From: Pseudomonadota bacterium
GTDB taxonomy: Bacteria > Bdellovibrionota_F > JAHFAK01 > JBDREC01
NCBI GenBank assembly: GCA_043820105.1
Contig: JBDREC010000041.1
Coordinates: forward strand, 1-64,000
Direction: 5' to 3'
Length of the DNA stretch: 64,000 nt
Position numbers and translations under genes: made by a program
In this document: positions 1 through 59,692 of the stretch, in pieces
Position numbering within the stretch: the first letter of the stretch is position 1
Layout of the letters: each line of letters begins with the position of its first letter
The notes under the pieces: generated by a model
What the model was told of the DNA's origin: nothing
Seen by the model: the letters and a program-made list of their open reading frames with translations, nothing else
The model's database searches: none

Positions 1-166
1 ATACCGAATACTGAATACTGAATACCGAATACTGAATACTGAATACCGAATACTGAATACTGAATACCGAATACTGAATACTGAATACCGAATACTGAAT
101 ACTGAATACCGAATACTGAATACTGAATACCGAATACTGAATACTGAATACTGAACACTGAATACC
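1..166. repeat. Heptamer tandem repeat (ATACTGA/ATACCGA) with 21-bp higher-order period; runs off the window start
   Basis: Direct reading: (ATACCGA ATACTGA ATACTGA)n, about 23 units, ending about 10 bp from the stop of the 176..1852 gene. Confidence 0.97.
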
Positions 167-175
167 ATTCCCTTC

Positions 176-1852
176 TTACCCACATCCACCACTACTTGGA
201 GCGACATAAGTAAACTCAGCTTCTACTGAAGCGCTCGGTGCAGTATCTTTTGTATATCCTTCTGACCCAGATAATGCTGGAAATGCTCCAGCTTCTGTTG
301 TTAAATTTATTTCATTACTTGCATCATCTATTATGGTAATACCCTTAGTTGTTTTTCCAAGTTCAACTGTAACTTCTAAAGCATTTTCAGGAAAGGCAAT
401 TCTTTCTCCACTAGTATAAGTAAATGAAATATCATTTAAAATTTCAGCTGTAAAAGATGTATCTGCATCAACAAAAATTCCACCTAAATTTGCACCTCTT
501 AAATCAGAGATTTCTTCTTCGCCATTAATGGCTTGAGCTATTATATTATAAGTTCCAGGTAAAACTCCATAAATTGTAAACTTACCATCACTTGTATCTT
601 CTCCATCATTATGACCAGAAATAGATCCCACAGCTTCTGAAGTTAAAGTATTTACAGCGATCACTGAAATCCCAAAAATCCCGAGGCCGTCAGCATCTTG
701 AACATATCCTTCAATGGCACCAAAATAATCTTCTACATTATTAGCAGGATATAAGGCCGTTACCGCTGCTTTGTCATCTGCCTCTATAGTCTTTCCTAAA
801 GAATCATCTTCTGGAAAAACGGAATAGAAAAGTGTGGGTAAAATAATATCAGCCAGCAAAGTATCAGTTACAGTTGTGTGACCAACACCAATAAAATGAC
901 CAAGCTCATGAGCTATGGCTGCTTCTAAGATTCCAATTACTGGTGGATTTTTCATATTTAAAATAAGAAATGCATCTATAATTTCACACGTTGAATCATC
1001 TATAATTGGATAACCAACACCAATTACAGAGTCAGGGTCACCTCCAAAAAGGTTGTAAACAATATCTCCGGTTTTATCAAAAATAATCTCATGTCTTTCA
1101 ATCGTCTCTTGTGTTCCTTGCATTCTTGGCAAATAAATGGAATTATAATCAATAGAACCGGTTTCTGAAATACTATCATAAGAAATAGGATTTTCAGTTT
1201 CACCCATGAATTCAAAAGCAAAATAAGATGTACTTACAGATTGCCACTGATTAAACATATTATGAATTGATAAAGGCAAATCATCATAATCAAAATCAAG
1301 TGCATCACGATCCATGTATATCTCAACGGGTATACTGGAGTAAGGCCAGTGTGCAACACCTATCTCAGAATCACAGTCATATGTAAAAAGACTATAAGCT
1401 TTACCTAATTTTTCTTTTTTATTTTTTTGTAATTTTAAATTTGGCTGCTTACTTATTAATTCAATTCCTTGATTATAACCAAGAATAGTATAAAAAGATA
1501 AATCATTTTTATCAGTAAGAAATAGTTTATAAACTGATTCTTGGGTAATATTTGGAAGGTCGTAATTTCTAACAGTGATTCCATTTAAACTGCCACCAAG
1601 ATAGCGAATTGAAAAACCTTCACTTTCATTAAGGCTTCCTTTTAATTTTTTGGTCACAGTAAAATCAAAGCTTGTAAAAATTAAACTGCCCTCAGAATAG
1701 ATATTTTTATTTTCACATCTGGCGTGAACAATATTTGAAGCCTTCTCAAAAAGCTCAGAGGATTCATAGCTTAACTTAAAAACAGGAAAGATCTTAAAGG
1801 AAAATAAAACAAGCGTAATTATTACTGTTAACAAAAGCGTTCTATAAAACAT
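176..1852 (-). CDS. Secreted zinc metalloprotease (matrixin/M10-like) with a carboxypeptidase-regulatory-like beta domain
   Basis: N-terminal hydrophobic signal; HELGHFIGVGH (HExxHxxGxxH); later GAIEGYV..DGKFTIYGVLPGTYNI segment; ends SSGGCG*. Confidence 0.8.
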   Translation of the reverse strand: MFYRTLLLTVIITLVLFSFKIFPVFKLSYESSELFEKASNIVHARCENKNIYSEGSLIFTSFDFTVTKKLKGSLNESEGFSIRYLGGSLNGITVRNYDLPNITQESVYKLFLTDKNDLSFYTILGYNQGIELISKQPNLKLQKNKKEKLGKAYSLFTYDCDSEIGVAHWPYSSIPVEIYMDRDALDFDYDDLPLSIHNMFNQWQSVSTSYFAFEFMGETENPISYDSISETGSIDYNSIYLPRMQGTQETIERHEIIFDKTGDIVYNLFGGDPDSVIGVGYPIIDDSTCEIIDAFLILNMKNPPVIGILEAAIAHELGHFIGVGHTTVTDTLLADIILPTLFYSVFPEDDSLGKTIEADDKAAVTALYPANNVEDYFGAIEGYVQDADGLGIFGISVIAVNTLTSEAVGSISGHNDGEDTSDGKFTIYGVLPGTYNIIAQAINGEEEISDLRGANLGGIFVDADTSFTAEILNDISFTYTSGERIAFPENALEVTVELGKTTKGITIIDDASNEINLTTEAGAFPALSGSEGYTKDTAPSASVEAEFTYVAPSSGGCG

Positions 1853-2083
1853 TTATTTATTTCTGTATTAGTTAATAAGTAAAAAAAGTTTAACAAATTA
1901 GATTTTGTCTAGCAATAGTTAAATACAAAAGATATTTAAGGAATATATGAGAAACTATAGATATCTCCTGGGACATTTGATACTCAACTAATGAGGATAT
2001 TTATCCTTTAATAACACTAAGAGCTCACAGCCCTGCGGGCATATGTTTTTGATATCATTAACCAATGCAAAAGCAACCCACAG

Positions 2084-2100
2084 TGGCACGATTTGTGCAT
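2084..2100 (+). promoter_or_regulatory. Sigma-54 (-24/-12) promoter
   Basis: TGGCACGATTTGTGCAT: GG-N10-GC, about 50 bp upstream of GGAG + ATG at 2150. Confidence 0.7.
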
Positions 2101-2149
2101 AGCGTTATCAGCAACCATGTTATTAAAACATTCACTATTGGAGAAAAAA

Positions 2150-2326
2150 ATGTGTAGTAATAAATATTGCCCTATCTACAAACAATGCGACAAACATGCA
2201 ATTCAAGTTAAAGTTTGCATGGAAAGTAAAAAAGAAGAAGATTTTGAAATTGCAGACATTAGCAAAGAATTAGGTCTATCAGAAATATTTGAAGATTTTA
2301 TTTCTGAAACACTAGAAGATTTATAA
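2150..2326 (+). CDS. Small Cys-rich hypothetical protein (58 aa)
   Basis: GGAG RBS before ATG 2150 (start revised from 2093); MCSNKYCPIYKQC..C followed by an acidic tail. Confidence 0.6.
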   Translation: MCSNKYCPIYKQCDKHAIQVKVCMESKKEEDFEIADISKELGLSEIFEDFISETLEDL

Positions 2327-3740: not shown

Positions 3741-3778
3741 AAGGGAACAAGAGCGCAGGAGCGCAAGGGAACAGGCAG
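3741..3778 (+). repeat. Degenerate 8-mer repeat (GGGAACAA/GAGCGCAG family)
   Basis: AAGGGAACAAGAGCGCAGGAGCGCAAGGGAACAGG directly after the stop codon. Confidence 0.6.
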
Positions 3779-3786
3779 ATGAGTGA

Positions 3787-5899: not shown

Positions 5900-7369
5900 A
5901 TGGAAAAAGATATTCAAAAAATTATAGCCACAAAAATCCCAATAGTCTATACCCTATCCTGGGAAGAAGAGCGTGTTGAAAATACGGTTAAAAACATTAG
6001 TCAATCAGGTTTTAAACAAGCTTTAAAATTCATAACCTGGAGCTCAACACTTGGTTTTTCTGAAACTTTTGATGGTGCTGAAAACACTAAAGATCCTGTT
6101 GAAGCACTTATACAAATTGCCAGTTGTCAAGAAATCACTATATTTGTTTTTAAAGACCCGCATCCATATATGCAAGATCCAAGGTTTGTTCGAGCTATAA
6201 AAGATGTATATATTGCCTTTAAAAACTCTTATAAAACCTTATTTTTTATATCCCCTATTCTTGCCATACCTTCTGAGATTTCTAAAGAAATTAGTTTGCT
6301 GGAATTTGCACTTCCTCAATATAATGAACTAGAAAAGACCCTGGATCTGGTTCTTAAAGTAAGAAAAGATGCAAAAATAGTATTAAATGAAGATGATAAA
6401 GATAAGATGGTAAAAGCTGTTTTGGGCTTAACTTTAGATGAAGCTTTAAACGCTTATAATATGGCTTTTTGGAACAAGACCAAAATTGATACAAGTTTGA
6501 TTCCAGCTGTTTATGAAAGAAAAACTCAGATTATTAAAAAAGAAGGTATCTTAGAATTTGTTCCAATAGAAAAGGACATGACTCATGTTGGAGGACTTGA
6601 AAATTTAAAAGCTTGGCTGGAGGTGAGATCTAAATTTTTCTCAAGACAGGCTGATGACTTTGGTCTACAATCCCCCAAAGGTCTTTTAATGACAGGAATC
6701 TCTGGCTGCGGAAAATCCCTTGCAGTTAAAGCCATAGCAGGTATGTGGGGAGTCGCATTACTACGTCTTGATATGAACCTTGTTTATAGCGGTGCCATGA
6801 GCTCACCAGAAGAATCTATGAGAAGAGCTTTAAAAACCGCTGAAGCTGTTGCTCCATGTGTTTTATGGATAGATGAAATTGAAATGGGTCTTGCCTGGGT
6901 TTCTGAAGGATCTGAGTCAGGTGTTACAGCTAGACTTTACTCAACCTTTTTAACCTGGATGCAGGAAAATCAAAGCTCTGTATTCATTGCAGCAACAGCC
7001 AATGAAATTGATCGTTTGCCCCCAGAACTTTTAAGAAAAGGAAGATTCGATGAAATATTCTTTGTTGATCTTCCGTCAATAAATGAAAGAATTGAAATTC
7101 TTAACATCCATCTTCGAAACAGAAAAAATGACCCTTCTAAATTCAATGTAGAAATGCTAGCCAAGTCTTGTGAAGGTTATAATGGAGCAGAATTAGAACA
7201 ATGCGTAGTCTCATCAATGTACAAAGCCTATGGAGAAGCACGCAAAGTCAATGAAAATGATATGCTAACAGCAATATCAGAAATGATTCCACTTTCAAAA
7301 ACAATGTCAGAAGCAATAAAAGAAATAAAACGCTGGGCAGATGATAGAGCTGTAAAAGCATCAAGATAA
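5900..7369 (+). CDS. AAA+ ATPase, Ycf46-like
   Basis: Walker A GISGCGKS; Walker B LWIDEIE; ATAN; LPPELLRKGRFDEIFFVDLP; degenerate N-terminal AAA module. Confidence 0.88.
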   Translation: MEKDIQKIIATKIPIVYTLSWEEERVENTVKNISQSGFKQALKFITWSSTLGFSETFDGAENTKDPVEALIQIASCQEITIFVFKDPHPYMQDPRFVRAIKDVYIAFKNSYKTLFFISPILAIPSEISKEISLLEFALPQYNELEKTLDLVLKVRKDAKIVLNEDDKDKMVKAVLGLTLDEALNAYNMAFWNKTKIDTSLIPAVYERKTQIIKKEGILEFVPIEKDMTHVGGLENLKAWLEVRSKFFSRQADDFGLQSPKGLLMTGISGCGKSLAVKAIAGMWGVALLRLDMNLVYSGAMSSPEESMRRALKTAEAVAPCVLWIDEIEMGLAWVSEGSESGVTARLYSTFLTWMQENQSSVFIAATANEIDRLPPELLRKGRFDEIFFVDLPSINERIEILNIHLRNRKNDPSKFNVEMLAKSCEGYNGAELEQCVVSSMYKAYGEARKVNENDMLTAISEMIPLSKTMSEAIKEIKRWADDRAVKASR

Positions 7370-7374
7370 GAATA

Positions 7375-7451
7375 AAGATTAAGATTAAGATTAAGATTAA
7401 GATTAAGATTTAAATTAATTGTTAATTGTTAATTATTAATTATTGATTATT
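7375..7451 (+). repeat. (AAGATT)x6 followed by (TTAATTG/TTAATTA)n
   Basis: Direct reading, just after the AAA ATPase stop. Confidence 0.9.
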
Positions 7452-7474: not shown

Positions 7475-7561
7475 CCACTTACCACTTACCACTTACCACT
7501 TACCACTTACCACTTACCACTTACGACTTACCACTTACGACTTACCACTTACGACTTACCC
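7475..7561 (-). repeat. Heptamer repeat (TAAGTGG/TAAGTCG on the minus strand), about 12 units
   Basis: CCACTTA/CGACTTA units on +, abutting the gspD stop. Confidence 0.95.
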
Positions 7562-7562
7562 C

Positions 7563-9746
7563 TTATTCCCCAACTTCCACTTCATACGTACTTATCCCAT
7601 CACTAGAATCCGAAAAATAGTTTTCTGCGTTATTTGAATTATTTGCATTTCCGGTTTTTGATTCAGAGCCATAGTTAATAACGATTCCAGCTGGGTGGGT
7701 GTCTGCTTTGTTAGACCCAACCCAGTCATCAACTTCAATGTCCATTTTCTGGTACATTTTATTTCTATCTTCTAAAGTTGCTTTTGTGAGATCGGAAATA
7801 TCTTTTGAGTCTTCAAGTACTGTGGGTGTAATAAATATAATAAGGTTAACTTTTGATTTTCTTTCATATTTATGCTTAAATAAATAACCAAGCACTGGAA
7901 TGTCACCAAGAATAGGAGTCTTTGAAACTGTTGTTTCAACCTTATCAGAAATAATCCCACCAATAGCAATCGTCTCACCGCTATTCGCCATAGCAATTGT
8001 TTTTGTATCTCTTTTTGTAAACATGTGTCTTCCACTAATTTTATCCTGACCAGCAGAATCTCTAATATTTTGTTCTATTTCCATTGTTACTTCACTTGAA
8101 TTATTAACCTTTGGCTTTATTTTAAGCATTAAGGTAACATCTTGTTTTTCATAAGTTGGCACGGCTTTTTCATTAGCATTAGTAGGACTAGTAGCCCCAA
8201 CTTGCACATAAACTTCTTTACCAATGTTAATTGTTGCTTCATTGTTATCTAAAGTTGTAATATTGGGTTTTTGTAAAAGTTTAACATCTGTAACACCTTG
8301 GCTAGCATTAAACAAGGCACCAATAGCTGGAAGGCTAAAACCTGAACCAAGTTCAATCGGGGCTGTAGTTAATCCAAGAATCAATCCTGATAATCCCGCT
8401 GCTTTAGATGGATCTATTGAGCCTGGTTCATGCTGAGAACCACCAAAAACTCCATAACCATTTGCATCATATCCACCATGACCCGAAGCACCAAGTTTAA
8501 AATTATCATCAGTCGAAACTTCCATTATAGCCGCAGCAATATTAACCTGCTTCCTCTTCTTATCCAATTCCATTATAATAGGAATAATTTCATCATATCC
8601 TTGTTGTGTAGCAACAATAATTAATGAATTTGTTGGTTCATCAGCTGTAACCTTTATATCTTCTCCACCGATTTTTGATCCACCACTTGGATTTGGGGCA
8701 GTATAACTGGATGCTCCATATTTGCTGCTTGTGCCATATCTGCTTTTATAAGATTTTGTTGAAGATAATATTGATGATAAAACTTCTGACACCTTAACTG
8801 CTTCTGTGTGTTCTAAATGATAAAAGAAAGGTTTTACAGCGTTTTGGTCATTTGTTAGATCTGTATCAAGTTTCTTTATAAGGTTTTGCACCTCAATAAG
8901 TCCTTTTTCAGTTGCTTTAACTATAATTGAATTTGTTCTTTCATCTGCTATTATGCTGGTTATAGTCTTTTTCCTGGTATCAGAAAAAGTCGATGCTGTG
9001 CCTGTTTTTGCATATTTGCTGTATCTTGATGAATAGCTAGTGCTACTTGATGAAGAACTTGAAATATTTAAAAGTTGTGTGAGTTTTTCAGCAACCTGCT
9101 TAGCTGGTGCATATTTTAAGGTGATAAATTCCACTCTTTCTTCAAAACCTTCAACATCCAGGCTTGCTATAACTTTTCTAATTCTCTTAATATTACTTAT
9201 TGTATCAGTAATAATTAAAGTATTTGTCGGTGCATAAACTTCAATACCACCCTTTGAAACCATAGAAGTTATAGCTTCTTTTAATTTATTTGCATCAATA
9301 TATTTTACTTCTATCATTTGTGTTGCATAAGATTCATCAATTTTTACAATACCATCACTTGTACCAATGCTTGACTGCTGTTTAATTGTATCAACTTTAA
9401 CGATCTTTAAGAAATTACCAGAATCAATCACTGTTATTCCCTGCATATTAATGGCAGCTAAAAAAGCATTATAAGCTTCTTTAATTGTCACTTTTTTAGG
9501 GGAAATAAGTGTGATTCTTTTGCCAGAAACAGCTGGATCAATAATAATATTTTTATCAATCAAGACAGCTATTTGTTTTGCAACATCAACAATATCCTGA
9601 TCTGAAAAATCAAGATTCACCTTTTCCTCAGCTTGCTCTTTCTTAGCAGCACTTGGATCAAATAGTCTAGGCTCTGAAAACAAAGATGTGGATAACATTG
9701 CTATAAGAATTAAGTTGATTATTAAAATCTCCTTCAATTTGTACAT
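7563..9746 (-). CDS. gspD: Type II secretion system secretin GspD
   Basis: N0 domain (VNLDFSDQDI..IIIDPAVSGKRITLISP), N1-N3 repeats (ADERTNSIIV, ADEPTNSLII), secretin core (PNITTLDNNEATINIG, KTPILGDIPVLGYLFK, LIIFITPTV). Confidence 0.92.
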   Translation of the reverse strand: MYKLKEILIINLILIAMLSTSLFSEPRLFDPSAAKKEQAEEKVNLDFSDQDIVDVAKQIAVLIDKNIIIDPAVSGKRITLISPKKVTIKEAYNAFLAAINMQGITVIDSGNFLKIVKVDTIKQQSSIGTSDGIVKIDESYATQMIEVKYIDANKLKEAITSMVSKGGIEVYAPTNTLIITDTISNIKRIRKVIASLDVEGFEERVEFITLKYAPAKQVAEKLTQLLNISSSSSSSTSYSSRYSKYAKTGTASTFSDTRKKTITSIIADERTNSIIVKATEKGLIEVQNLIKKLDTDLTNDQNAVKPFFYHLEHTEAVKVSEVLSSILSSTKSYKSRYGTSSKYGASSYTAPNPSGGSKIGGEDIKVTADEPTNSLIIVATQQGYDEIIPIIMELDKKRKQVNIAAAIMEVSTDDNFKLGASGHGGYDANGYGVFGGSQHEPGSIDPSKAAGLSGLILGLTTAPIELGSGFSLPAIGALFNASQGVTDVKLLQKPNITTLDNNEATINIGKEVYVQVGATSPTNANEKAVPTYEKQDVTLMLKIKPKVNNSSEVTMEIEQNIRDSAGQDKISGRHMFTKRDTKTIAMANSGETIAIGGIISDKVETTVSKTPILGDIPVLGYLFKHKYERKSKVNLIIFITPTVLEDSKDISDLTKATLEDRNKMYQKMDIEVDDWVGSNKADTHPAGIVINYGSESKTGNANNSNNAENYFSDSSDGISTYEVEVGE

Positions 9747-9809: not shown

Positions 9810-10109
9810 AGCCTGTAACATTAAATTAGTTCAATCATTTCATGTCACTGCGTCAACATGAAGCTTATTTTATTAATTTTTCAATGCCTATTCTTCAGCA
9901 TATGATTTTTTCGCCTCCTTGCTCTGTGCATAATAAGCTACTGATTTTATTTCATTAAGCTTTAATTAAAGCAAATTTTGTTCTTATCAATATAATGCTT
10001 AAAATCAGCACATACTAAATCAAGTAAATATTTTTACTTACTTGATTTATTTACATTATATAATTATATAATTAATTAATATAAATTACTAGGTATAAAA
10101 TTCTAACAC

Positions 10110-11426
10110 ATGATTATTATTGATTATTTAATAAATATACCTGCGTTTTTCAAGGTCTTGTTTATCTTTATTTCCATTTTAAGTCTTTATAGGCTAGGAC
10201 TGGCTCTTAGCCTTTCAATGATAGTTTCAGCACTTTTTTTAACCTTTTGGACAGGTGTAGGAGTTCAAGGAATAAAATTTCAACTGCTAGCCCTTTTAAA
10301 ACCTGAAAATTATCTCTTATTGCTAATAATTACCCTCCTTTTACTTTTTAGTGAAGCCTTGAGTAAAAGCAATCGCATGCAATTAACTGTTGATGCTTTA
10401 AAATCAATTTTTCCATATCCGAAAATATTATTAATGGGTTTGCCAGCTCTGGTTGGTATTATTCCAATGCCAGGAGGAGCCCTTTTTTCCGCCCCATTAA
10501 TTGATTCTATTGATGATAAAAAAACCTTAAAACCCTGTTTAAAATTAGCAGTAAATTATTGGTTTAGGCATATTTGGGAATATTGGTGGCCTCTTTATCC
10601 AGGAGTAATATTAGCCATTCAATTAAGTGGTATAAAAGTAGGAAGCTATGCACTTGCAATGTCTCCTTTTACTATCATAGGTCTTTTAGCTGGCTACTTT
10701 TTTATATTAAGAAAAATTGAAGTGAATAAGATGAAAATTTCAACTACTAAAGCTAAATATAGAGATTTATTACCAGGCTTAATCCCTTTATTAATAGTAA
10801 TTTTTTCTTCAATTTTTGGATCTTTGATTTTTGCAAAACTTGGTATAAATGCGAAAATTGCAAATCTTTATGCAATGCTATTTGGTTTGCTTTTTGCTAT
10901 TAGTTTAATATTTATTAAAAATAAAGATTCAATAAAAGAAACCTTAAAAGTTTTTAAAACAAAGAAAATGCAAAATATACTTTTGGTTGTCTTAGGAGTA
11001 GAACTTTTTTATACTGCTCTGCAAATTCCATTAAATGCACAAGGTCTCACCTTAGTTGGATTAATGAGAGAAGAATTCTTGCAAGCTTCCTTTCCAATTA
11101 TCATAATAATTATGCTTCTACCATTTATATCAGGTCTTGTAACAGGCATAGCCTTTGGCTTTGTTGGAGCAAGCTTCCCAATCATAATTCCTTTGCTAGG
11201 CGATAATCCATCCTTTGGCTTATTATTATCAACTGTTGTGATTGCCTTTAACTTTGGATATATGGGTCAAATCCTATCTCCTGTTCATGTTTGCCTGGTA
11301 GTAACAAATGAATACTTTAAAACAAAAATATATCAGGTCTATAAATATATTTGGAAACCGATTTTGGTGTTTTTGGTGTGGACGTTTTTAATAGCTGGAC
11401 TATATTATGTATTATTTCCCTCCTAA
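10110..11426 (+). CDS. DUF401-family membrane protein (putative transporter)
   Basis: Many TM segments; PALVGIIPMPGGALFSAP, NYWFRHIWEYWWPLYPG, LSPVHVCL. Confidence 0.8.
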   Translation: MIIIDYLINIPAFFKVLFIFISILSLYRLGLALSLSMIVSALFLTFWTGVGVQGIKFQLLALLKPENYLLLLIITLLLLFSEALSKSNRMQLTVDALKSIFPYPKILLMGLPALVGIIPMPGGALFSAPLIDSIDDKKTLKPCLKLAVNYWFRHIWEYWWPLYPGVILAIQLSGIKVGSYALAMSPFTIIGLLAGYFFILRKIEVNKMKISTTKAKYRDLLPGLIPLLIVIFSSIFGSLIFAKLGINAKIANLYAMLFGLLFAISLIFIKNKDSIKETLKVFKTKKMQNILLVVLGVELFYTALQIPLNAQGLTLVGLMREEFLQASFPIIIIIMLLPFISGLVTGIAFGFVGASFPIIIPLLGDNPSFGLLLSTVVIAFNFGYMGQILSPVHVCLVVTNEYFKTKIYQVYKYIWKPILVFLVWTFLIAGLYYVLFPS

Positions 11427-11429
11427 TCA

Positions 11430-11495
11430 TTAATTATTAATTATTAATTGTTAATTATTGATTATTTTAGTTCACGTTCACGAGCACGAGCACGA
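11430..11495. repeat. (TTAATTA/G)n plus (CACGAG/CACGTT)n between convergent genes
   Basis: Direct reading. Confidence 0.75.
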
Positions 11496-12880: not shown

Positions 12881-12962
12881 ACTTACGACTTACGACTTAC
12901 GACTTACGACTTACGACTTATGACTTATGACTTACGACTTACGACTTACGACTTATGACTTA
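12881..12962 (-). repeat. Heptamer repeat (TAAGTCG/TAAGTCA on minus), about 12 units
   Basis: Fills almost the whole gap between ndk and the PduS-like gene. Confidence 0.95.
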
Positions 12963-13376
12963 CTAAACTAACTCAATAGCACTAAAAAAATATCCAATTT
13001 CAAAAGCAGCTGTTTCAGGTGCATCGGAACCATGCACGCAATTATTCTGAATGCTGTCTGCAAAATCTTTTCTTATTGTACCAGGTTCGGCATTTTCAGG
13101 GTTAGTCGCTCCCATTATTTCTCTATTTCTTTTAATAACATCTTCTGCTTCTAAGGCAACAACAACACAGGGTCCTGAAGTCATAAACTCAACTAAGCTA
13201 TCAAAAAAAGGCTTTCCTTTATGTACGCAATAGAAACCTTGAGCTTCTTTTTCGGAAAGGTGTTTAAGCTTCATTCCAATTATGTTAAAACCAGCTTCAG
13301 TATATCTTTTAATTATTTCACCTGTTAATTTTTTCTTAAAAGCATCTGGTTTAATTATTCCTAATGTTCTTTCCAT
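12963..13376 (-). CDS. ndk: Nucleoside diphosphate kinase
   Basis: ERTLGIIKPDA, GATNP, PGTIR, NCVHGSD; start 13376 preferred for GGAG spacing (13385 possible). Confidence 0.97.
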   Translation of the reverse strand: MERTLGIIKPDAFKKKLTGEIIKRYTEAGFNIIGMKLKHLSEKEAQGFYCVHKGKPFFDSLVEFMTSGPCVVVALEAEDVIKRNREIMGATNPENAEPGTIRKDFADSIQNNCVHGSDAPETAAFEIGYFFSAIELV

Positions 13377-17066: not shown

Positions 17067-17100
17067 TAAGTGGTAAGTGGTAAGTGGTAAGTGGTAAGTG
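17067..17100 (-). repeat. Heptamer repeat (CACTTAC on the minus/sense strand), about 5 units
   Basis: Immediately upstream of the sucD RBS. Confidence 0.9.
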
Positions 17101-25060: not shown

Positions 25061-25120
25061 CAAAATTCCTCTTTTTTCTTGAACACATATGAATATTACT
25101 TAATTTATTGGTATAGTGTC

Positions 25121-35629: not shown

Positions 35630-35662
35630 ATCATATATATTTTTTTAGCTGCTAAGTTTTAA

Positions 35663-35692
35663 GCTTACCACTTACCACTTACAGCTTACTGC
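35663..35692 (+). repeat. CTTACCA heptamer repeat
   Basis: Upstream of the AGGAG RBS of the gene at 35711. Confidence 0.8.
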
Positions 35693-35710
35693 TTTTAAAA
35701 AGGAGTTATA

Positions 35711-37613: not shown

Positions 37614-37809
37614 TTTCCTAGGTAGTTTTAATAATTTAAGTAAGTTGGGTTATCAGCCATCAGCCTTCAGCCATCAGCAAAAAGGTAAACTTCTTAAACA
37701 TTTTTCTAAAAATCAATGAAAAACTATAATTAAATTTATTTTAAATTGACATTTGTTTTCTATAAATAGAATAAATTTTATTAAGCTTAACTAAAAATGG
37801 AAAGCTATA

Positions 37810-38715: not shown

Positions 38716-38746
38716 GTCGTAAGTCGTAAGTGGTAAGTCGTAAGTA
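38699..38746 (+). repeat. TAAGTCG heptamer repeat overlapping the lysC stop
   Basis: The last codons (SRKS*) are encoded by the repeat. Confidence 0.93.
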
Positions 38747-46133: not shown

Positions 46134-46225
46134 AAAATTAAATGATGAGGAAAAGCTTAATAGATTAGGGGATAAATAAAGTCAAGTGAAGCGTGAAAAG
46201 TGAAATGGGAAAATTCAGGGAATAA

Positions 46226-46861: not shown

Positions 46862-47086
46862 GGTGTGCAATTGAGCTAAGATATTTAAATATTTTGACTA
46901 ATTGGGCTTTCAGCTCTCGGCTATCAGTTATCAGCATAAAATTTTGCCGATATTTAGGCGGAAATCGCTGAAGATATATCATCAATTTGATTTGATTTTT
47001 TGTTTTAATATTTCTATTAATCAGCAGAATAAAATTCTAACTTTAGGTATTTGTTAAAGTGTTTAGCTAAAAAGTCAAAGTTAGGA

Positions 47087-47126
47087 ACTTACAACTTACA
47101 GCTTACCACTTACCACTTACCACTTA
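47087..47126 (+). repeat. ACTTACC/ACTTACA heptamer repeat
   Basis: Directly upstream of the GGAGG RBS of the gene at 47144. Confidence 0.88.
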
Positions 47127-48274: not shown

Positions 48275-48373
48275 CTTAAACAACAACAATCCAAATTAGA
48301 AAGCCCAAATACAAAATCCTTTTCACTCCTGGTACTCTGGTGCACTGGCGCACTGGTGACCTAGAGATTACTC

Positions 48374-52210: not shown

Positions 52211-52230
52211 AAAAAGGCTCCGCCTTTTTG

Positions 52231-52307
52231 GTATTCAGTATTTAGTATTTAGTATTTGGTTATTAAAGCACTTACCAAATGCCAAATACTATAAACCGTA
52301 TACCGAA
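52231..52307. repeat. Inverted pair of GTATTTA/GTATTCA-family heptamer repeats
   Basis: GTATTCAGTATTTAGTATTTAGTATTTGG ... CCAAATGCCAAATACT..ATACCGAA; same family as 1-166. Confidence 0.7.
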
Positions 52308-52768: not shown

Positions 52769-53342
52769 TTATTTATTTTCAAACAGCTCTTTTATCACCG
52801 TACTGTAAAATTTATGTTCTACGTTTAAGCCCTTTTCTTCAACTTCAGAAAGTGTTTTACAAAAACTTAAGTCAACATCTGCTTGTTTGATGATTTTTCC
52901 TGTATCTACACCTGAGTCAACATAATGAACCGTAATTTTTGTGCGAGACATTTTTTTATTAAAGGCCCATTCATAAGCATGTGCCCCTTGATACTCTTTA
53001 GTATCAGCTGGATGAATATTAATTATTCTTCCTTTGTAATAATTTACAAATAATGGTGACAATATTCTCATAAATCCAGCCAGGATTATATAGTCAGGAT
53101 TATATTTAGCAAGAACTTCTATCATTTTTTTTTTCAAACTCTTCTCTGGATCTTTTTTTAGAGTTAACTAATTCGGTTTTTATTCCCATTTTACTGGCTA
53201 ATTCTAGCCCTTTAGCTCCTTTTTTATTTGAAAGAACACAGGATATTTCACAAACATCCTTTAAAATGCCATTTTTGGCATTTTTAGCAATAGCTATCAT
53301 GTTTGAACCGCGACCAGAGATAAGTATAGCAATTTTTTTCAC
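52769..53342 (-). pseudogene. purN: Phosphoribosylglycinamide formyltransferase split by a 1-bp frameshift in an A10 run
   Basis: N-half IAILISGRGSN (53106..53342) and C-half LAGFMRILS..INIHP..TVHYVDSGVDTGKII (52769..53137) join if T10 at 53125-53134 were T9. Confidence 0.9.
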
Positions 53343-53355: not shown

Positions 53356-53408
53356 TTGAGAATTGAAAATAATCAATAATTAATAATTAATAATTAATAA
53401 TTAATTAA
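53356..53408. repeat. (TAATTAA/TAATCAA)n repeat between purD and purN
   Basis: Direct reading. Confidence 0.75.
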
Positions 53409-56005: not shown

Positions 56006-56025
56006 TAATTACTCCTTGTTGATAT

Positions 56026-56050
56026 GGTTGCTAGTTGCTGGTTGCTGGTG
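56026..56050 (-). repeat. CCAGCAA heptamer repeat (sense strand) upstream of purB
   Basis: GGTTGCTAGTTGCTGGTTGCTGGTG on +. Confidence 0.65.
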
Positions 56051-56485: not shown

Positions 56486-56511
56486 ATCTTTTCCTTAATT
56501 ACCCATCACTT

Positions 56512-56560
56512 TAACTCTTAACTCTTAACTCTTAACTCTTAACTCTTAACTCTTAACTCT
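56512..56560 (-). repeat. (TAAGAGT)x7 on the minus strand
   Basis: Abuts the stop codon of the purC-purE gene. Confidence 0.95.
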
Positions 56561-57946
56561 TCACTCAGAACTCCTAACACTTTCATCATTATGCCTTAGT
56601 TCGTCTTTCATTGTTTTTATTTCTTCATTAAATCTTTCTTTTAACCTGGGCAAATTCAAACTTCTTAATGCAGCTAAAGCTGCATTGTGGGTTTTAATAA
56701 CTGTAGCTGCTGGAACTAGTGATGGCATCATTAATGAAGAATTAATATTTAGCAATAAATCAGTCTGATCTTTAAATGGAGGACATGAAAACACAGGAAT
56801 TGACAAATTAGCAGCCAGGGCTCCACCTAAGCCATTTGAAAAACCAGCGATTGCTACAATTGCTCCAGGCTCAACTGATGTATTATAGACTTCAGCTAAA
56901 GATAAAATATCCTCGCCATTTTTATGAGCTGAACAAACTCTTATATCACTATAAATATCATATTCATTTAAATGTTTTTTTATTTTATTGGCGTGATCAA
57001 TGTCTGTGCTTGAACCCATAATTAGAATAACATATCCATCTTTAATTAGCTTATTTTTAACTAAATTATGTCTCACTCTTTGATAAACATCCTCACATAT
57101 TCCAATCTTTTTGCCTGTAATTTTCTCACAAATATATATATATCTATTCTGAGTTTCTTTGATAACCTTTTCAGGCAAAGCATTTGGATATTGGCCATCT
57201 TTTTTATTTGCAATTAACCAAAGCCGAACAAACTCTTTATCCATTTGTTCCACATTCTCAGGATCTGCCTTATATTTTTCAACATCCCAAAACCTAGATG
57301 AATCTGGGGTATGAATCTCATCAATTAAAATTAAGTCGCCATCATAAATTCCAAATTCGTATTTTGTATCGACTAAAATAATTCCTTTTTCAGAAAGAAT
57401 TTCAGTTCCTCGTTTAAATAAAGCTAGGGCTGCATTTTCCATTTGTTTATAAAGTCTTTTTCTACACAGACCTTCCATAAGAATTTGGGCTGGAGTAATT
57501 TCCCGATCTGATTCTTCTTTTGTAGTTGGAGTTAAAATTGGATTTGGAAGCTGTTGGTTTTTTGTAAGACCATCAGCTACTTCAACACCTGAAAAAATTC
57601 TTTTTCCTTTTTCATAATTTCTCCACATTGATCCTGACAAATAATTTCTAACAACCATTTCAACTCTTATTGGTTCTGCTTCTTTAACGATATTAATGCT
57701 TGGATCAATTTCCTTAAGTAAATGATTAGGTATTATGTCCTTTGTCTTTTCAAACCAAAAATTGGAAATTGTATTTAGCACAGCCCCCTTGCATGGTATA
57801 GAAGTCTTCAAAACAGAATCAAAAGCAGAAATCCGATCTGTAACTACAATCATTCTTGATTCTTTGTTAAAACGAAAACTATCACGAACCTTGCCTTTGT
57901 GAATTAGAGCTAATTGAGGAGTGGTAAAAGATGTTAAACAATTCAT
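56561..57946 (-). CDS. purCE: Bifunctional SAICAR synthetase (PurC) / AIR carboxylase (class II PurE) fusion
   Basis: N-terminal GKVRD, DRISAFD, DTKYEFG, DEIHTPDSSRFW; C-terminal IMGSSTD, SAHK, AGFSNGL, PVFSCPP. Confidence 0.9.
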   Translation of the reverse strand: MNCLTSFTTPQLALIHKGKVRDSFRFNKESRMIVVTDRISAFDSVLKTSIPCKGAVLNTISNFWFEKTKDIIPNHLLKEIDPSINIVKEAEPIRVEMVVRNYLSGSMWRNYEKGKRIFSGVEVADGLTKNQQLPNPILTPTTKEESDREITPAQILMEGLCRKRLYKQMENAALALFKRGTEILSEKGIILVDTKYEFGIYDGDLILIDEIHTPDSSRFWDVEKYKADPENVEQMDKEFVRLWLIANKKDGQYPNALPEKVIKETQNRYIYICEKITGKKIGICEDVYQRVRHNLVKNKLIKDGYVILIMGSSTDIDHANKIKKHLNEYDIYSDIRVCSAHKNGEDILSLAEVYNTSVEPGAIVAIAGFSNGLGGALAANLSIPVFSCPPFKDQTDLLLNINSSLMMPSLVPAATVIKTHNAALAALRSLNLPRLKERFNEEIKTMKDELRHNDESVRSSE

Positions 57947-57968
57947 ATTTATTCCTTATAAAAAGCAA

Positions 57969-58032
57969 AGTCATAAGTCGTATGTCGTAAGTCGTAAAAA
58001 CTTACCACTTACCACTTACCTCTTACCACTTA
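57969..58032. repeat. Inverted pair of heptamer arrays (TAAGTCG then CACTTAC on +)
   Basis: On the sense (minus) strand: TAAGTGG units after the purH stop, then CGACTTA units before the purC RBS. Confidence 0.88.
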
Positions 58033-58035
58033 TTA

Positions 58036-59649
58036 TTAATGCCTAAAGTGTCTCATTCCAGTCATAAACATTGATATTCCAAGTTCATCACATTTCTTAA
58101 TAACTGCCCTATCCTTAATTGACCCCCCTGGTTGAACAACTGTTTTAATTCCATATTCATTCATTATTTCTATGTTATCTGGAAAAGGGAAAAAGGCATC
58201 TGAAATTAAAACAATTCTTTCTAGCTCTTCTTTTTTATAAGCTTCAAATTCAGTTTCAGGGCCAGTAAATTCATTCTTAAGATTTTCAAGCATCCTATCA
58301 AGTGACAGTCTAACTGAATTTACTCGATTTGGCTGGCCTGCACCAATTCCAAGCAGTTGAAAGTAATTATTATTTTTAAATTTTCTTATAACAACTATTG
58401 CATTTGATTTAACGGATCTGCAAGCTTTTAGACCAAACTCAATAAACTCTTTTGTTAGGATATCACATTCTCTTTTAGTAACTAAGGTTAGATCCTTTAA
58501 AAGTTCATTATCAGAATCTTGCAAAAGCAAAGTTCCATTTAAAAATTTATAATCTGCTTTCATATTTGAAGAAAGCGGATCAAGCTTAATAATTCTTAAG
58601 CCTTTATGAAGCTTAAGATATTCAAGGGTCTCATCAGCATAAGATGGGGCAATAATTACTTCAACAAATTTTCTTTTAAACTTATCTTCATGATCAAGCT
58701 CTAAGAACTTTGCAGTTTCAAGTTTTAGTGGTTTATTAAAAGCAATAATTGATCCAAAGGCTGAAACTGGATCAGAAGCCCAGGCTTTTTCAAATACTTC
58801 CAGCTGATCATCTCCTTCACATAAGCCACAGGGATTAGTATGTTTAATGATAGCACATCCAAAGCGATCTAAATCCTTGCAGGCATATATAGCACCATCA
58901 ATATCAACAATATTATTATAAGAAAGCTCCTTTCCACCAAGAATTTCCATATCAAAAAGAGAATTTTCAAAATCATTTTGTTTGTAAAACATTGCTTCTT
59001 GATGTGGATTTTCACCATATCTTAATTTCATACCTTTTGAGAATGAAAGCCTTTTTGAATAAACACCAAAGCGCTGGTCTAGGGTTTCTGCAATCATTGA
59101 ATCATAATCAGCTGTATGGTTAAAGGCAAGTCTAGCTAACTTCTCTTTAGTTTCTAAAGATAAAGATCCTGCGTTTTTGTTAAGCTCAAATATGATATTT
59201 TCATACTGAGCAGGATCTGTAAGACAGGCAACAAATTTATAATTTTTAGCAGCAGCCCGAATCATTGTAGGTCCACCAATATCAATATTTTCAACCAAAG
59301 TATCCAGATCAGCATTTTCATCCCTGTAATTTTTAAAAGGATAGAGATTACAAATCACCATATCTATAGCTTCTATTCCAAGATCACTAGCTTCTTTGGC
59401 ATCATTATCTCTGTGAAATAATATGGCAGATTCTATTTCAAAGGAAATTGTCTTCATCCTGCCTGAAAAGGCTTCAGGATTTCCTGTTACCTTTGATATT
59501 TCAGTGAATCCAATTCCATTTTCTTTTAAAACTTTTCCTGTACCCCCAGTTGATATCAACTCACATCCATTAGCAACGAGAGCCTTAGCTAATGCAACAA
59601 TTCCATCCTTATTAGATACTGACAATAAGGCTTTTTTTATTTTAAGCAT
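58036..59649 (-). CDS. purH: Bifunctional AICAR transformylase / IMP cyclohydrolase
   Basis: ALLSVSNK, STGGT, NLYPF, IDIGGP, RYGENPHQ, IKHTNPCG, SDAFFPF, QPGGS, RHFRH; start revised to 59649 (GGAGG RBS). Confidence 0.97.
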   Translation of the reverse strand: MLKIKKALLSVSNKDGIVALAKALVANGCELISTGGTGKVLKENGIGFTEISKVTGNPEAFSGRMKTISFEIESAILFHRDNDAKEASDLGIEAIDMVICNLYPFKNYRDENADLDTLVENIDIGGPTMIRAAAKNYKFVACLTDPAQYENIIFELNKNAGSLSLETKEKLARLAFNHTADYDSMIAETLDQRFGVYSKRLSFSKGMKLRYGENPHQEAMFYKQNDFENSLFDMEILGGKELSYNNIVDIDGAIYACKDLDRFGCAIIKHTNPCGLCEGDDQLEVFEKAWASDPVSAFGSIIAFNKPLKLETAKFLELDHEDKFKRKFVEVIIAPSYADETLEYLKLHKGLRIIKLDPLSSNMKADYKFLNGTLLLQDSDNELLKDLTLVTKRECDILTKEFIEFGLKACRSVKSNAIVVIRKFKNNNYFQLLGIGAGQPNRVNSVRLSLDRMLENLKNEFTGPETEFEAYKKEELERIVLISDAFFPFPDNIEIMNEYGIKTVVQPGGSIKDRAVIKKCDELGISMFMTGMRHFRH

Positions 59650-59664
59650 GAAACCCTCCAGAAA

Positions 59665-59692
59665 CGTACAGCGTACAGCGTACGGCGTACGG
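59665..59692. repeat. (CGTACAG/CGTACGG)x4
   Basis: Immediately upstream of the purH RBS. Confidence 0.8.

Follow-up and report, generated by a model that had tools for sequence, protein, structure and literature searches.

Strand polarity of heptamer-type repeat arrays at gene boundaries in a bacterial contig and in other genomes

Short tandem repeats of several unrelated unit sequences lie at the gene junctions of the window analysed here (64,000 nucleotides of contig JBDREC010000041.1), which raises the question of why arrays that differ in sequence should share one orientation towards the neighbouring gene. The preliminary description of this DNA had reported G-rich sense strands after stop codons and C-rich ones before starts, and had suggested either a transcription-linked function, such as RNA end protection, termination or ribosome handling, or a directional generating process.

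Repeat arrays in the intergenic spacers

Gene calls were mechanical ORFs with Pfam support and hand-set starts, and arrays were defined as Tandem Repeats Finder (TRF) rows with a period of 6–8 and at least 2.8 copies, overlapping rows being merged. This revealed 40 arrays in the window, with periods of 7 (n = 31), 8 (n = 5) and 6 (n = 4). Although non-ORF bases make up only 10.6% of the window, 36 of the 40 arrays were intergenic (binomial p = 5.5e-31), and arrays occupied 1514 of 6810 intergenic bases (about one fifth). Dinucleotide shuffles of the concatenated spacers (n = 50) yielded 0.26 arrays on average and never more than 2, compared with the 36 found, so that the previously claimed intergenic arrays of 6–8-nt units are real. 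Two consecutive TAAGTSG units with at most one mismatch gave 70 matches in 12 places of the window (expected 0.04). Terminator-like sites numbered 38 per 60 kb versus 29.4 in shuffles and lay nearly all within genes, in line with the earlier impression of few classical intrinsic terminators.

The arrays are heptamer-type long simple-sequence repeats in untranslated gene flanks. The 5' end of their G-rich strand abuts the nearer gene, and an mRNA is therefore G-rich just after the stop codon and C-rich just before the ribosome-binding site. In the following list, arrays obey or break this rule or are neutral in G/C content; (.) denotes no strand.

1..165 (-): TCAGTAT/TCGGTAT x23.6, truncated at the window edge, super-unit of 21 nt; 10 nt past the stop of 176..1852(-); sense G 32, C 23; obeys mildly
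3741..3786 (+): degenerate AGGGAACA / GGAGCGCA block below TRF cut-offs, filling the 46-nt gap between convergent stops; it touches both, so that polarity cannot be scored
5777..5802 (.): CTGGTGCT x3.2, divergent gap; G 9, C 8; neutral
7363..7418 (+): (T)AAGATT x9.3, overlaps the 5900..7369(+) stop codon; obeys (distance -7)
7414..7451 (+): ATTAATT/TTAATTG x5.4, end ..ATTATTGATTATTTT; weakly obeys
7475..7565 (-): TAAGTGG/TAAGTCG x13, its first TAA serving as the stop of gspD; obeys (distance -3)
10055..10086 (.): ATTAAATA x3.9, 23 nt 5' of the start of 10110..11426(+); no G/C, neutral
11424..11466 (+): TTAATTA/TTAATTG x6.1, beginning at the stop of 10110..11426(+), end ..ATTATTGATTATTTT; neutral
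11479..11495 (.): CACGAG x2.8; neutral
12881..12963 (-): TAAGTCG x11.9, from the ndk stop to the next gene's start (8 nt off); obeys for the stop
17067..17100 (+): TAAGTGG x4.9, sense CCACTTA, ending 14 nt before the sucD ATG (17052), just 5' of AGGAG; obeys
25109..25294 (+): TAAGTGG/TAAGTCG x26.4, sense C-rich, 48 nt before start 25060(-); obeys
25378..25415 (-): TAAGTGG-type x5.4, sense C-rich, 76 nt before start 25492(+); obeys
26037..26075 (+): GATGCTG/GTTGCTG x5.6, 5 nt past stop 26031(+); obeys
26084..26126 (+): ACTGGTG(TT) x5.9, composite block, module 2; obeys
26139..26176 (+): ATTAATT x5.4, composite block, module 3, end ..ATTATTGATTATTTT; neutral
26240..26266 (-): AAGAGTT x4.0, mid 487-nt gap, nearest gene >200 nt away; breaks
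26414..26518 (+): AACAAGRG x3.8, followed by GGTATTT units, ACTGGYG units and CTGGTACCCAAGTATTCATTGATTATTG; the composite block in a second but incomplete copy, reaching the stop of 26519..28375(-); breaks
28459..28499 (+): AAAATTG/GATTGTT x5.9, left arm of a long hairpin; obeys
28509..28551 (-): GATTATT x6.1, right arm of the 28459-28551 hairpin; breaks
28552..28595 (-): TAAGTSG-type x6.3, 506-nt gap; breaks (176 nt vs 286 nt)
28793..28823 (.): ATTAATT x4.4, end ..ATTATTGGTTATTTTT; no G/C, neutral
30995..31031 (-): AACAAGGG x4.6, at the stop of 31030..34029(-); obeys (distance -2)
34519..34557 (-): TAAGTGG-type x5.6, sense CCACTTA, 16 nt before the korA-like ATG 34574; obeys
35662..35694 (-): TAAGTGG/TAAGCTG x4.7, sense C-rich, 16 nt before ATG 35711; obeys
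37652..37678 (-): GGCTGAT x3.9, divergent gap; breaks for the nearer start (38 nt), fits the farther (131 nt)
38699..38745 (+): TAAGTCG x6.7, supplying the last 5 codons and stop of lysC, with the dapB start 17 nt past the array; obeys (distance -17)
46184..46213 (+): AAGTGAA x4.3, weak (TRF score 32); breaks
47086..47126 (-): TAAGTGG-type x5.9, sense C-rich, 17 nt before the icd ATG 47144; obeys
48329..48358 (+): CTGGTGCA x3.8, between convergent stops; G 11, C 8; weakly breaks
52227..52257 (+): TTTAGTA x4.4, sense TACTAAA, 16 nt before the purF ATG; obeys
53368..53405 (-): AATTATT x5.4, 9 nt past the purD stop, end ..ATTATTGATTATTTT; neutral
56025..56049 (+): TGGTTGC x3.6, sense GCAACCA, 19 nt before the purB ATG; obeys
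56511..56582 (-): GAGTTAA (TAAGAGT) x10.3, purCE ORF ending 22 nt inside; obeys
57968..57997 (+): TAAGTCG-type x4.3, sense C-rich, 21 nt before the purCE ATG, 3' arm of a hairpin; obeys
58000..58032 (-): TAAGTGG x4.7, 3 nt past the purH stop, 5' arm of that hairpin; obeys
59665..59690 (.): CGTACAG x3.7, 15 nt before the purH ATG 59649; G 8, C 8; neutral

All G-rich examples named earlier were found in place after stops (the 176 gene, 3740, 7369, gspD, ndk, 26031, 31030, lysC, purCE and purH), as were the C-rich ones before starts (sucD, 25060, 25492, 34574, 35711, 47144, purF, purB and purCE). At seven genes, the C-rich window arrays end 14–21 nt 5' of the ATG, just upstream of an AGGAG-type Shine-Dalgarno sequence.

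The polarity rule in the window and elsewhere

Of the 35 window arrays flanked by genes on both sides, the rule is followed by 20 and broken by 7, and the other 8 are G/C-neutral. Where a short gap separates genes on the same strand, one array both follows a stop and precedes a start, and there the rule is testable only with respect to the nearer boundary. A stricter skew cut-off left 18 obeying versus 7 breaking (p = 0.043), and of the 27 arrays with the nearest gene within 60 nt, 21 obeyed, 3 broke the rule and 3 were tied (p = 0.0003). The rule-breaking arrays are those at 26414-26443, 26240, 28509, 28552, 37652, 46184 and 48329. The 26411-26514 block, formerly given as the apparent exception, thus does break the rule, but six further arrays do so as well. 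Orientation of the arrays does not follow the replication strand.

As had been proposed, one rule spans unrelated unit families: on the strand whose 5' end points towards the nearest gene, 21 of 24 window arrays had a positive G-C skew, as did 42 of 51 arrays of non-ascertained families in other genomes. The same array tests gave no signal for T-A skew, and G versus C, not T versus A, is the deciding variable. ATTAATT, CTGGTGCT, CGTACAG and CACGAG carry almost no G/C signal.

Scanning for TAAGTSG arrays outside the window returned at least 116 from at least 12 phyla, and among the matches listed 65 loci from 61 assemblies had usable flanks. In these, the 5' end of the G-rich strand faced the nearer gene 56 times and the farther gene 8 times, with one tie, and median distances were 9 nt versus 77 nt. 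With one locus per assembly among the matches listed, 52 obeyed, 8 broke the rule and 1 was tied (p = 5e-9); Pfam support for both neighbours, available at 37 of the 65 listed loci, left 33, 3 and 1, respectively. Unrelated unit families within the same listed loci obeyed in 47 cases and broke the rule in 11. Within 40 nt of stops, the ratios of sense G>C to C>G were 39:2, 22:3 and 11:2; within 40 nt of starts, those of C>G to G>C were 23:4, 15:2 and 7:1. Polarity also held without an inverted partner (44 to 6). The rule is therefore general well beyond the window, in dozens of unrelated bacteria, and orientation-blind slippage alone cannot explain it, as the preliminary description had anticipated.

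The rule itself is not new and was previously published for two other repeat types. According to Rehm et al. 2015 (PMC4692102), GGGAATC and GGGGAYT arrays show the same polarity, reported independently in three genomes; the GGGAATC arrays follow it in Xanthomonas, and arrays in Nostoc do so as well. That study attributes the polarity to G-quadruplexes, whereas here it holds without G-runs (19 to 4). The window heptamers belong to one class with the Xanthomonas GGGAATC arrays, whose polarity they share, the Beggiatoaceae TAACTGA arrays and the cyanobacterial STRRs, the last a comparison that had aptly been drawn before.

Array anatomy and predicted transcript properties

Over 58 arrays no polar growth was seen: mismatches averaged 1.17 on the gene side and 1.02 on the far side for the end unit, and 0.43 and 0.52 for the second unit. 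This symmetric edge decay leaves a directional generating process unsupported, and higher-order blocks of 14 and 21 nt point instead to ordinary block duplication. The arrays at 34514-34558 and 47083-47127 agree at 38 of 45 bases and have an identical odd unit, and five ATTAATT arrays have one end sequence in common.

Single arrays were predicted to be unstructured as RNA (-1.1, -0.3 and -1.5 kcal/mol, z > +1), including that at 12881..12963 (-1.1 kcal/mol). Strong folds were predicted for both inverted pairs singled out earlier, purH-purCE (-27.2 kcal/mol, z -5.3) and 52308-purF (-33.9 kcal/mol, z -6.2), the 52227..52257 array pairing in the latter with a G-rich arm at 52258-52307. For the 28459-28551 hairpin, predicted values were -33.7 and -35.6 kcal/mol (z -8.0 and -7.2).

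Upstream of starts, arrays contained 0.08–0.15 start codons per unit on the sense strand versus 0.39–0.47 on the opposite one. After stops, their sense strand closed 2.90 reading frames at TAAGTSG loci, 1.58 in other families and 1.92 in the window, compared with 0.63, 0.81 and 1.38 on the opposite strand, and in 15 of 30 stop-adjacent loci an ORF terminates within the array. Non-repeat flanks leaned slightly the same way, though not significantly (p ~0.12 each), with 16.8% G and 14.0% C after stops and 10.3% G and 12.6% C at 12–50 nt before starts.

A possible origin of the polarity

Our preferred reading of these observations is slippage-type arrays in untranslated regions whose orientation would be filtered at the transcript level. 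Ordinary slippage or block duplication would create and lengthen the arrays, which is favoured over polar synthesis by the symmetric edge decay and the 14- and 21-nt super-units. Copying or homogenisation may then move them among loci of one genome, as the near-identical pair and the common end of the ATTAATT arrays suggest, and deletion could press them flush to the coding boundary. The filter itself would act on the transcript. Beside the ribosome-binding site, only the G-poor strand might be tolerated or favoured, since it offers almost no NTG starts, no Shine-Dalgarno look-alikes and no self-folding. Beside the stop codon, only the C-poor strand would be tolerated, as it brings reading frames to an end and spares the transcript an untranslated stretch rich in C and poor in G. 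Where one gap holds both orientations, a hairpin would result whose 5' arm is the G-rich one.

Several points argue against such a filter. It needs a separate selective reason on each side of the gene for one mirror-symmetric rule, which is not parsimonious. The codon argument fails for GGGAATC, whose sequence appears to hold no start or stop codons on either strand and which nevertheless obeys in Xanthomonas. The argument from C-rich trailers leans on Rho, yet PMC13289151 describes Rho as absent from cyanobacteria, to which the rule-obeying Nostoc belongs, and a leader rich in C ought to look like a Rho loading site as well. Moreover, the background skew of non-repeat flanks stays below significance, about 12–25% of arrays break the rule, and the recurrence of a single unit 12 times within 64 kb requires a spreading process that the explanation names but does not describe. 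We therefore hold transcript-level filtering of slippage-type arrays only tentatively, at a probability of roughly 0.4. We do not think that a dedicated function of the arrays is needed.

Genes and tandem-repeat arrays of the window

The window has a G+C content of 31-35% with a GC skew that is negative over its entire length, and ~89% of it is coding according to our own ORF set. Pfam assignments, which cover most genes, comprise the GspD secretin, ndk, sucCD, rplM-rpsI, lysC, dapB/A/F/D, icd, purF, purN, purD, purB, a purC-purE fusion (purCE) and purH, as well as two 2-oxoacid:ferredoxin oxidoreductase clusters. The starts of four genes (sucD 17052, icd 47144, purH 59649 and 25060) were reset, because the longest ORFs crossed repeat arrays that contain no stop codon on that strand. 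In a search of 5.8 billion proteins the best non-self match of SucC was 63-64% identical, so that the source organism is a member of a poorly sampled lineage. The nearest Atlas clusters for PurCE belong to Myxococcota and Bacteroidota. Three observations concern individual genes:

17137-18351: SucC; the database copy has 386 aa and our own ORF 404 codons, and the true start probably lies 18 codons downstream
52769-53342 (-): purN, apparently frameshifted; ORF 52769..53137 matches Formyl_trans_N positions 68-181 only, and the overlapping ORF 53106..53342 reads like the missing N-terminus, with a homopolymer run nearby; the split may stem from a sequencing error or mark a pseudogene
63614-63931, in gene 63174..63989 (-) without Pfam match: tandem repeat within the coding sequence, periods 15/18 nt and 48/81 nt, of another kind than the intergenic heptamers

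Merging of TRF rows with a period of 6-8 and at least 2.8 copies resulted in 40 arrays, 31 of which are heptamers. While 10.6% of the bases are non-coding, 36 of the 40 arrays are located outside ORFs (p = 5.5e-31), compared to 0.26 expected in spacers from dinucleotide shuffles, and they account for 1514 of the 6810 intergenic bases (22%). Copy numbers range from 2.8 to 26.4 with a median near 5. The units are contiguous and have no spacers, which distinguishes the arrays from CRISPR loci with their 24-48-nt repeats and unique spacers. The main family is TAAGTGG/TAAGTCG, which occurs in 12 places with 70 two-unit matches (0.04 expected). Further families are TAAGAGT, (T)AAGATT, TTAATTG/ATTAATT, ACTGGTG / CTGGTGNN, GATGCTG/GTTGCTG, AGGGAACA, ATACTGA, GGCTGAT and TACTAAA. 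The preliminary description had reported arrays at a series of named gene junctions; every example was found in its place, and the existence of the arrays as described is confirmed.

Array polarity in the window and in other genomes

Arrays were scored by the rule that the 5' end of the G-rich strand points towards the nearer gene; in the mRNA, an obeying array is G-rich behind a stop codon and C-rich ahead of a ribosome-binding site. Among the 35 window arrays with a gene on both sides, 20 obey the rule, 7 break it and 8 have no G/C skew. A stricter skew cut-off left 18 obeying and 7 breaking arrays (p = 0.043). The ratio was 21 to 3 for window arrays within 60 nt of a gene (p = 0.0003), and within 40 nt of a boundary it was 11:2 at stops and 7:1 at starts. 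By itself, the window is suggestive of a polarity, not overwhelming. A single exception, the block at 26411-26514, had been singled out beforehand; it does break the rule, but it is not alone, as seven arrays of the window do so. The exceptions are concentrated in the long gaps 26032-26518 and 28376-28881, in which 75-330 nt separate an array from its "nearest gene"; the others are weak arrays at 37652, 46184 and 48329. The two gaps contain the following features:

26032-26182: composite block of GATGCTG units, ACTGGTG units, CTGGTACCCAAGTATTCATT and then ATTAATT units
26411-26518: partial second copy of this block in the same orientation, 380 nt downstream of 26032-26182
28376-28881: 506-nt gap between two - strand genes, in which two inverted AT-rich arrays form a hairpin of -34 to -36 kcal/mol without Rfam match
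28430, 28762 and 28884 (+): three terminator-like hairpins with T-runs associated with the 28376-28881 gap

With an unannotated gene or RNA on the + strand terminating near 26400, the copy at 26411-26518 would fit the rule; inspection of that gap revealed no ORF of at least 35 codons near this position. The gap 28376-28881 may harbour an unannotated + strand transcript, which would also explain its apparent rule-breakers. Rfam and tRNA scans of the window gave no match, so that no known RNA gene accounts for the arrays that break the rule in the long gaps.

To other bacteria the rule was applied via the main family: one genome per bacterial species was scanned for TAAGTSG x3, for which we estimate ~2 chance matches, and at least 116 loci were obtained. 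The matches listed are an arbitrary subset of these, and their taxonomic spread is a lower bound. Judged by record titles, the hosts among the matches listed belong to Bacteroidota (many), Gamma-, Beta- and Alphaproteobacteria, Campylobacterota, Chloroflexota, Cyanobacteria, Planctomycetota, Acidobacteriota, Gemmatimonadota, Omnitrophota, Patescibacteria, Bacillota and others, at least 12 phyla in total, with a local G+C content of 32 to 70%. The matches listed are unrelated to the window and to each other, and an all-against-all blastn detected no shared flanks among them. Once the 51 loci with a flank shorter than 600 nt had been left out, 65 loci from 61 assemblies remained. Mechanical calling of the flanking ORFs used a minimum of 80 codons and treated the array as a barrier to start-codon choice.

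In these 65 listed loci, the 5' end of the G-strand is nearer to a gene in 56 cases and farther in 8, with one tie (p = 5.6e-10), and the median distance to the gene is 9 nt at this end compared to 77 nt at the other. Restriction to one locus per assembly gave 52, 8 and 1 (p = 5e-9), and the 37 of 65 loci with Pfam support for both neighbours gave 33, 3 and 1. The rule is obeyed in 15 of 20 listed loci with both genes along the G-strand, in 20 of 21 with both genes opposite to it and in 15 of 15 convergent gaps; divergent gaps (6 of 9) are less clear. Other TRF arrays in the listed loci, with units that are nearly all different, obey by 47 to 11, a count in which arrays of the same gap are partly dependent. 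If the three sets are summed, arrays within 40 nt of a stop have G exceeding C on the sense strand in 72 cases and C exceeding G in 7; for arrays within 40 nt of a start, C exceeds G in 45 cases and G exceeds C in 7. Each half of the originally described pattern, G-rich after stops and C-rich before starts, therefore stands separately.

Array anatomy and possible causes of the polarity

At stop-side loci the ORF ends within the array in 15 of 30 listed cases, and in the window this holds for gspD, lysC and purCE; the repeat itself provides some of the stop codons. The C-rich arrays of sucD, korA, korB, icd, purF, purB and purCE end 14-21 nt before the ATG and sit immediately 5' of AGGAG-type sites. 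The G-rich strand closes more reading frames than the C-rich strand, which has ~1/5 to 2/5 of its number of start codons. Of the 91 nt at 7475-7565, 37 are C and 3 are G in the C-rich reading, a composition that would suit a Rho loading (rut) site. Folding predicted next to no RNA structure for single arrays and hairpins of -27 to -36 kcal/mol for inverted pairs. The inverted pairs noted earlier within operons, purH-purCE and 52308-purF, do fold in this way, and a further pair was detected at 28459/28509. Two observations at individual gaps may be added:

52211-52230 (-): purF Shine-Dalgarno region (AAAAAGGCGGAGCCUUUUU), folding as its own 8-bp hairpin that buries GGAG, right after the array hairpin
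19772/19775, 39485/39491, 42919/42934 and 37132/37161: convergent gene pairs spaced 2, 5, 14 and 28 nt; at a width of only 2-28 nt these gaps have no space for any terminator

Several arrays of the window resemble each other in more than their unit:

34514-34558, 35651-35694 and 47083-47127: start-side arrays of different genes with the common odd unit CAGCTTA in the same register
7409-7457, 11424-11472, 26134-26182, 28788-28836 and 53363-53411(-): five AT-rich arrays of ATTAATT type, all ending in ..ATTATTG(A/G)TTATTTT

Of the three CAGCTTA arrays, 34514-34558 and 47083-47127 are identical at 38 of 45 bases, and two of the five ATTAATT-type arrays are identical at 44 of 49. The latter five behave like copies of one small element and not like independent slippage products. 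The common order of variants and the common endings suggest that arrays were copied, homogenised or gene-converted between loci. Super-units of 14 and 21 nt occur as well: among the TAAGTSG loci of other bacteria, L025 and L087 of one assembly and L073 and L081 of another show a strict alternation of two unit variants, that is, a 14-nt super-unit. This alternation looks like a genome-specific "dialect", which again hints at copying between loci. Just past the heptamer arrays of L039 and L102, which stem from unrelated genomes, lies a common ~23-nt sequence (gtcacactgagcttgtcgaag..), and a similar one (gtcatcctgagcgcagc..) follows the array of L100; a further widespread family of intergenic repeats seems to be present here.

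As to the variable that decides orientation, skew was taken from the strand with its 5' end towards the gene. G-C skew is positive for 21 of 24 arrays of the window and for 42 of 51 belonging to other families in the listed loci, whereas T-A skew is flat (12/13 in the window, 20/32 in the other families). T-A, purine and keto skew were rejected as drivers in favour of G-C skew, and the initial choice of G versus C was right. The skew of the non-repeat flanks has the same direction as the rule and is not significant. A link to the replication strand was also rejected: the G-rich strand is the + strand for 17 arrays and the - strand for 15, all in a single domain of uniformly negative GC skew.

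Among the possible explanations, it is very improbable that the polarity derives from structure, be it G-quadruplexes or hairpin terminators or stabilisers built from inverted pairs. It has been shown that G-quadruplexes form in vitro and that four units are preferred (Rehm 2015, PMC4692102), the inverted pairs of our arrays fold strongly (z -5.3 to -8.0), and 18 of 102 listed loci have an inverted partner within 200 nt on the 3' side of the G-rich arm, compared to one locus with a partner on the 5' side. This last asymmetry is the polarity rule viewed from the middle of the gap, and the remaining 83 loci have no partner. Window units contain no GGG and TAAGTCG contains no GG, so G-quadruplexes cannot underlie the polarity here. 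Both a G-quadruplex and a hairpin requirement were rejected, as arrays without any GG obey by 19 to 4 (n=23) and those without an inverted partner within 200 nt by 44 to 6 (n=51). The arrays also differ from the usual intrinsic terminators, in that single arrays are unfolded and the paired hairpins of the window are not followed by a T-run; downstream of stop-side arrays on the G-strand, the strict terminator pattern was found in 0 of 30 loci compared to 0.9 expected from shuffles. Looser hairpins with T-runs were seen by eye at the TAAGTSG loci L003 and L041 and, in another arrangement, at L014, and a position of the arrays between stop and terminator is not established. Structure as a requirement for polarity is largely refuted; it may hold for subsets. 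A role as transcription insulators is unlikely. Arrays would here shield genes from read-in or antisense transcription, or halt read-out, where ordinary terminators are missing: polymerase entering a gene would make C-rich, G-poor RNA able to load Rho, and polymerase leaving it would make G-rich RNA, perhaps prone to stable RNA:DNA hybrids. In line with this, an effect of G versus C without one of A/T is the composition signature of Rho loading sites (PMC13289151), the rule is mirror-symmetric about the gene and holds in all four gene arrangements of the listed loci, and single C-rich arrays are long and unstructured. Terminator-like sites in the window are at chance level (38 versus 29.4 in shuffles), which also agrees with the early impression of few classical terminators. 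On the other hand, the start-side C-rich tract sits in the gene's own mRNA, which should not terminate, and a Rho site would be more useful right behind the stop, the reverse of what is observed. Any version based on Rho is further undercut, because cyanobacteria have no Rho (PMC13289151), yet Nostoc obeys the rule (PMC4692102).

A directional generator appears quite unlikely as well, that is, an enzyme which makes the G-rich strand 5' to 3' outward from gene ends in a telomerase-like or reverse-transcriptase-templated manner, or a small mobile element of fixed orientation. It would account for one unit at 12 sites in 64 kb, for the variant order and end sequences common to separate arrays, for the three-module composite block that is present twice and for arrays that lie flush with the coding boundary. 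G-rich strands that point away from the gene on both sides also resemble telomere polarity. Polar growth, however, was not seen, as the units decay equally at both ends (mismatches of 1.17 vs 1.02 in end units and 0.43 vs 0.52 in second units, n=58), and the 14- and 21-nt super-units speak for block duplication. Moreover, Pfam detected no reverse transcriptase, transposase or Avd-like gene in the 51 window ORFs, no conserved flank was seen beside the TAAGTSG arrays, nearly each "other" array in the loci has a unit of its own, and a mobile element would be unable to sense which side of a gene received it. Similarly improbable are putative phased sites for a single-strand nucleic-acid-binding protein (cold-shock-domain protein, ribosomal protein S1 or another factor), whose footprint would set the 7-nt period and whose strand preference would set the polarity. 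A cold-shock domain covers ~7 nt of a pyrimidine-rich strand, the period is exactly 7 in 31 of 40 arrays, single arrays are unstructured and hence accessible, and the C-rich arrays adjoin the Shine-Dalgarno sequence. S1, Csp or CsrA have been proposed for TAACTGA arrays (MacGregor 2015, PMC4679880), and deletion of leader heptamers altered the response of a recO reporter to LexA and NtcA in E. coli (10.1101/2022.06.06.494920). Units are nevertheless extremely diverse even within one locus; with at least seven families in the window, no single sequence-specific protein would read the arrays, and the G-rich stop-side arrays are left unexplained. Chance or an assembly artefact of the metagenomic contig has a negligible probability. 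While the copy number of the long arrays (186 nt, 165 nt) is as given by the assembly and the window edge truncates the first array, the excess over shuffles, the unique coding sequence flanking the arrays and the presence of like arrays and the rule in isolate genomes, including a complete chromosome (loci L019, L024, L041, L047, L059, L076), argue against it.

The account that we favour, at a probability of about 0.4, combines four steps. Arrays of untranslated flanks would arise by slippage, copying would spread them from locus to locus, deletion would push them up against the coding boundaries, and their orientation would be filtered via effects on the transcript. On the start side, this filter would retain a G-free leader that is free of decoy starts, Shine-Dalgarno mimics and structure. 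This half of the filter is well motivated; the stop-side half is weaker. A version based on codon content fails for the unit GGGAATC. The preliminary description had interpreted the polarity as a transcription-linked function or a directional generating process, which is partly supported.

Known repeat systems and the meaning of the rule

REP/BIME elements of enterobacteria and pseudomonads are abundant and intergenic, are often found after stops, lie beside housekeeping genes and often form inverted-pair hairpins in operon transcripts. REPs are single 20-40-nt imperfect palindromes that are moved by a dedicated transposase-like enzyme. In contrast, the window units are 6-8 nt long, tandem and not palindromic, and no REP-type tyrosine-transposase Pfam family was found in the 51 window ORFs. 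Phase-variation loci consist of slippage-prone repeats that can alter expression by copy number, mostly 1-5-nt units in ORFs or promoter spacers of surface-structure genes of host-adapted bacteria, whereas the window units have 7 nt and lie outside ORFs beside genes of central metabolism. Cyanobacterial STRRs are heptamer units dispersed in intergenic DNA. The window units presumably all differ from STRR units, and no cyanobacterial marker was seen in the 64-kb window. Ahead of the start, the sense strands of the Nostoc recO leader with GAC(C/T)AAT x8 and of the recF leader with (TTCAAAA)3 contain more C than G (10.1101/2022.06.06.494920), in agreement with the rule.

The closest precedent is the study of Rehm et al. 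2015 (PLoS One), who described the polarity of GGGAATC arrays in Xanthomonas and GGGGA(C/T)T arrays in Nostoc PCC 7120 (PMC4692102). According to this study, the G-rich strand is the sense strand up to 50 bp behind stops and the antisense strand up to 50 bp ahead of starts, and arrays are closer to the 5' neighbour "irrespective of the ORFs orientation" (PMC4692102). Convergent inverted pairs and the lack of a leading/lagging bias were reported, as was a positional conservation between species of 83% with length changes; the authors describe no function and read the polarity in terms of G-quadruplexes (PMC4692102). Our arrays share with theirs that they are mostly intergenic tandem heptamers of the same polarity, with convergent inverted pairs and without strand bias, that they adjoin housekeeping genes and are rare between divergent genes, and that some overlap the stop codon (PMC4692102). 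They differ in that the window units have no G-tracts, in that at least seven unit families occur together in 64 kb of a genome with 32% G+C, and in copy numbers of ~3 to 26 (median ~5) that do not favour four.

MacGregor 2015 described TAACTGA repeats of marine Beggiatoaceae, some Cyanobacteria and Bacteroidetes, and in the BOGUAY genome 147 of 170 sets are directed at a start codon (PMC4679880). Like our arrays, these are intergenic, strongly orientation-biased and flush with the start, and their gaps contain other heptamers and differ between strains by indels in 7-nt steps (PMC4679880). TAACTGA arrays are, however, short (2-6 copies) and mostly start-side (PMC4679880), and the unit contains one G and one C, so that the G/C rule is unreadable from it. 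On both strands of the window, TAACTGA x2 is absent and single copies number 13; the nearest window unit, ATACTGA (1-165), lies behind a stop. In Geobacter metallireducens, tandem GTTGCTYN x4 and MTYCTGA x5 are annotated as "global regulator binding sites" (PMC2700814). The units resemble GTTGCTG and ATACTGA of the window and are likewise tandem, of many copies and often in inverted pairs; in contrast to the window arrays, they are described as DNA-binding sites of fixed copy number (PMC2700814).

Among the long microsatellites of bacteria, heptamer arrays are the commonest kind (Mrazek 2007, cited in PMC4679880). In view of Rehm et al., MacGregor 2015 and the Nostoc leaders, both the kind of array and the polarity rule were already known. 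What is new is that the rule also covers units unable to form G-quadruplexes, many families side by side in one genome, and many phyla (at least 12). In the literature outside subscription journals, we found no paper with TAAGTGG, CCACTTA, TAAGTCG or CGACTTA as words and none that generalises the 2015 rule. Heptamer polarity has had a single published account, which is based on G-quadruplexes (PMC4692102). This account is removed, because the rule holds for units without G-quadruplex potential, for arrays without partner, for many families and across at least 12 phyla. A three-genome curiosity thereby becomes a general regularity that needs a general cause. It is conceivable, although rather doubtful, that nearly all bacteria follow this polarity, that it depends neither on unit sequence, G-quadruplexes, hairpins or replication strand nor, probably, on Rho, and that it reflects one strand-asymmetric process at the borders of translated regions. 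If true, this process would also explain how one unit colonises dozens of junctions per genome. For genomes of unknown content, the polarity rule offers a cheap, annotation-free cue to gene ends and strand, and it reveals ORFs that were called too long across the stop-free C-rich strand, as with sucD, icd and purH.
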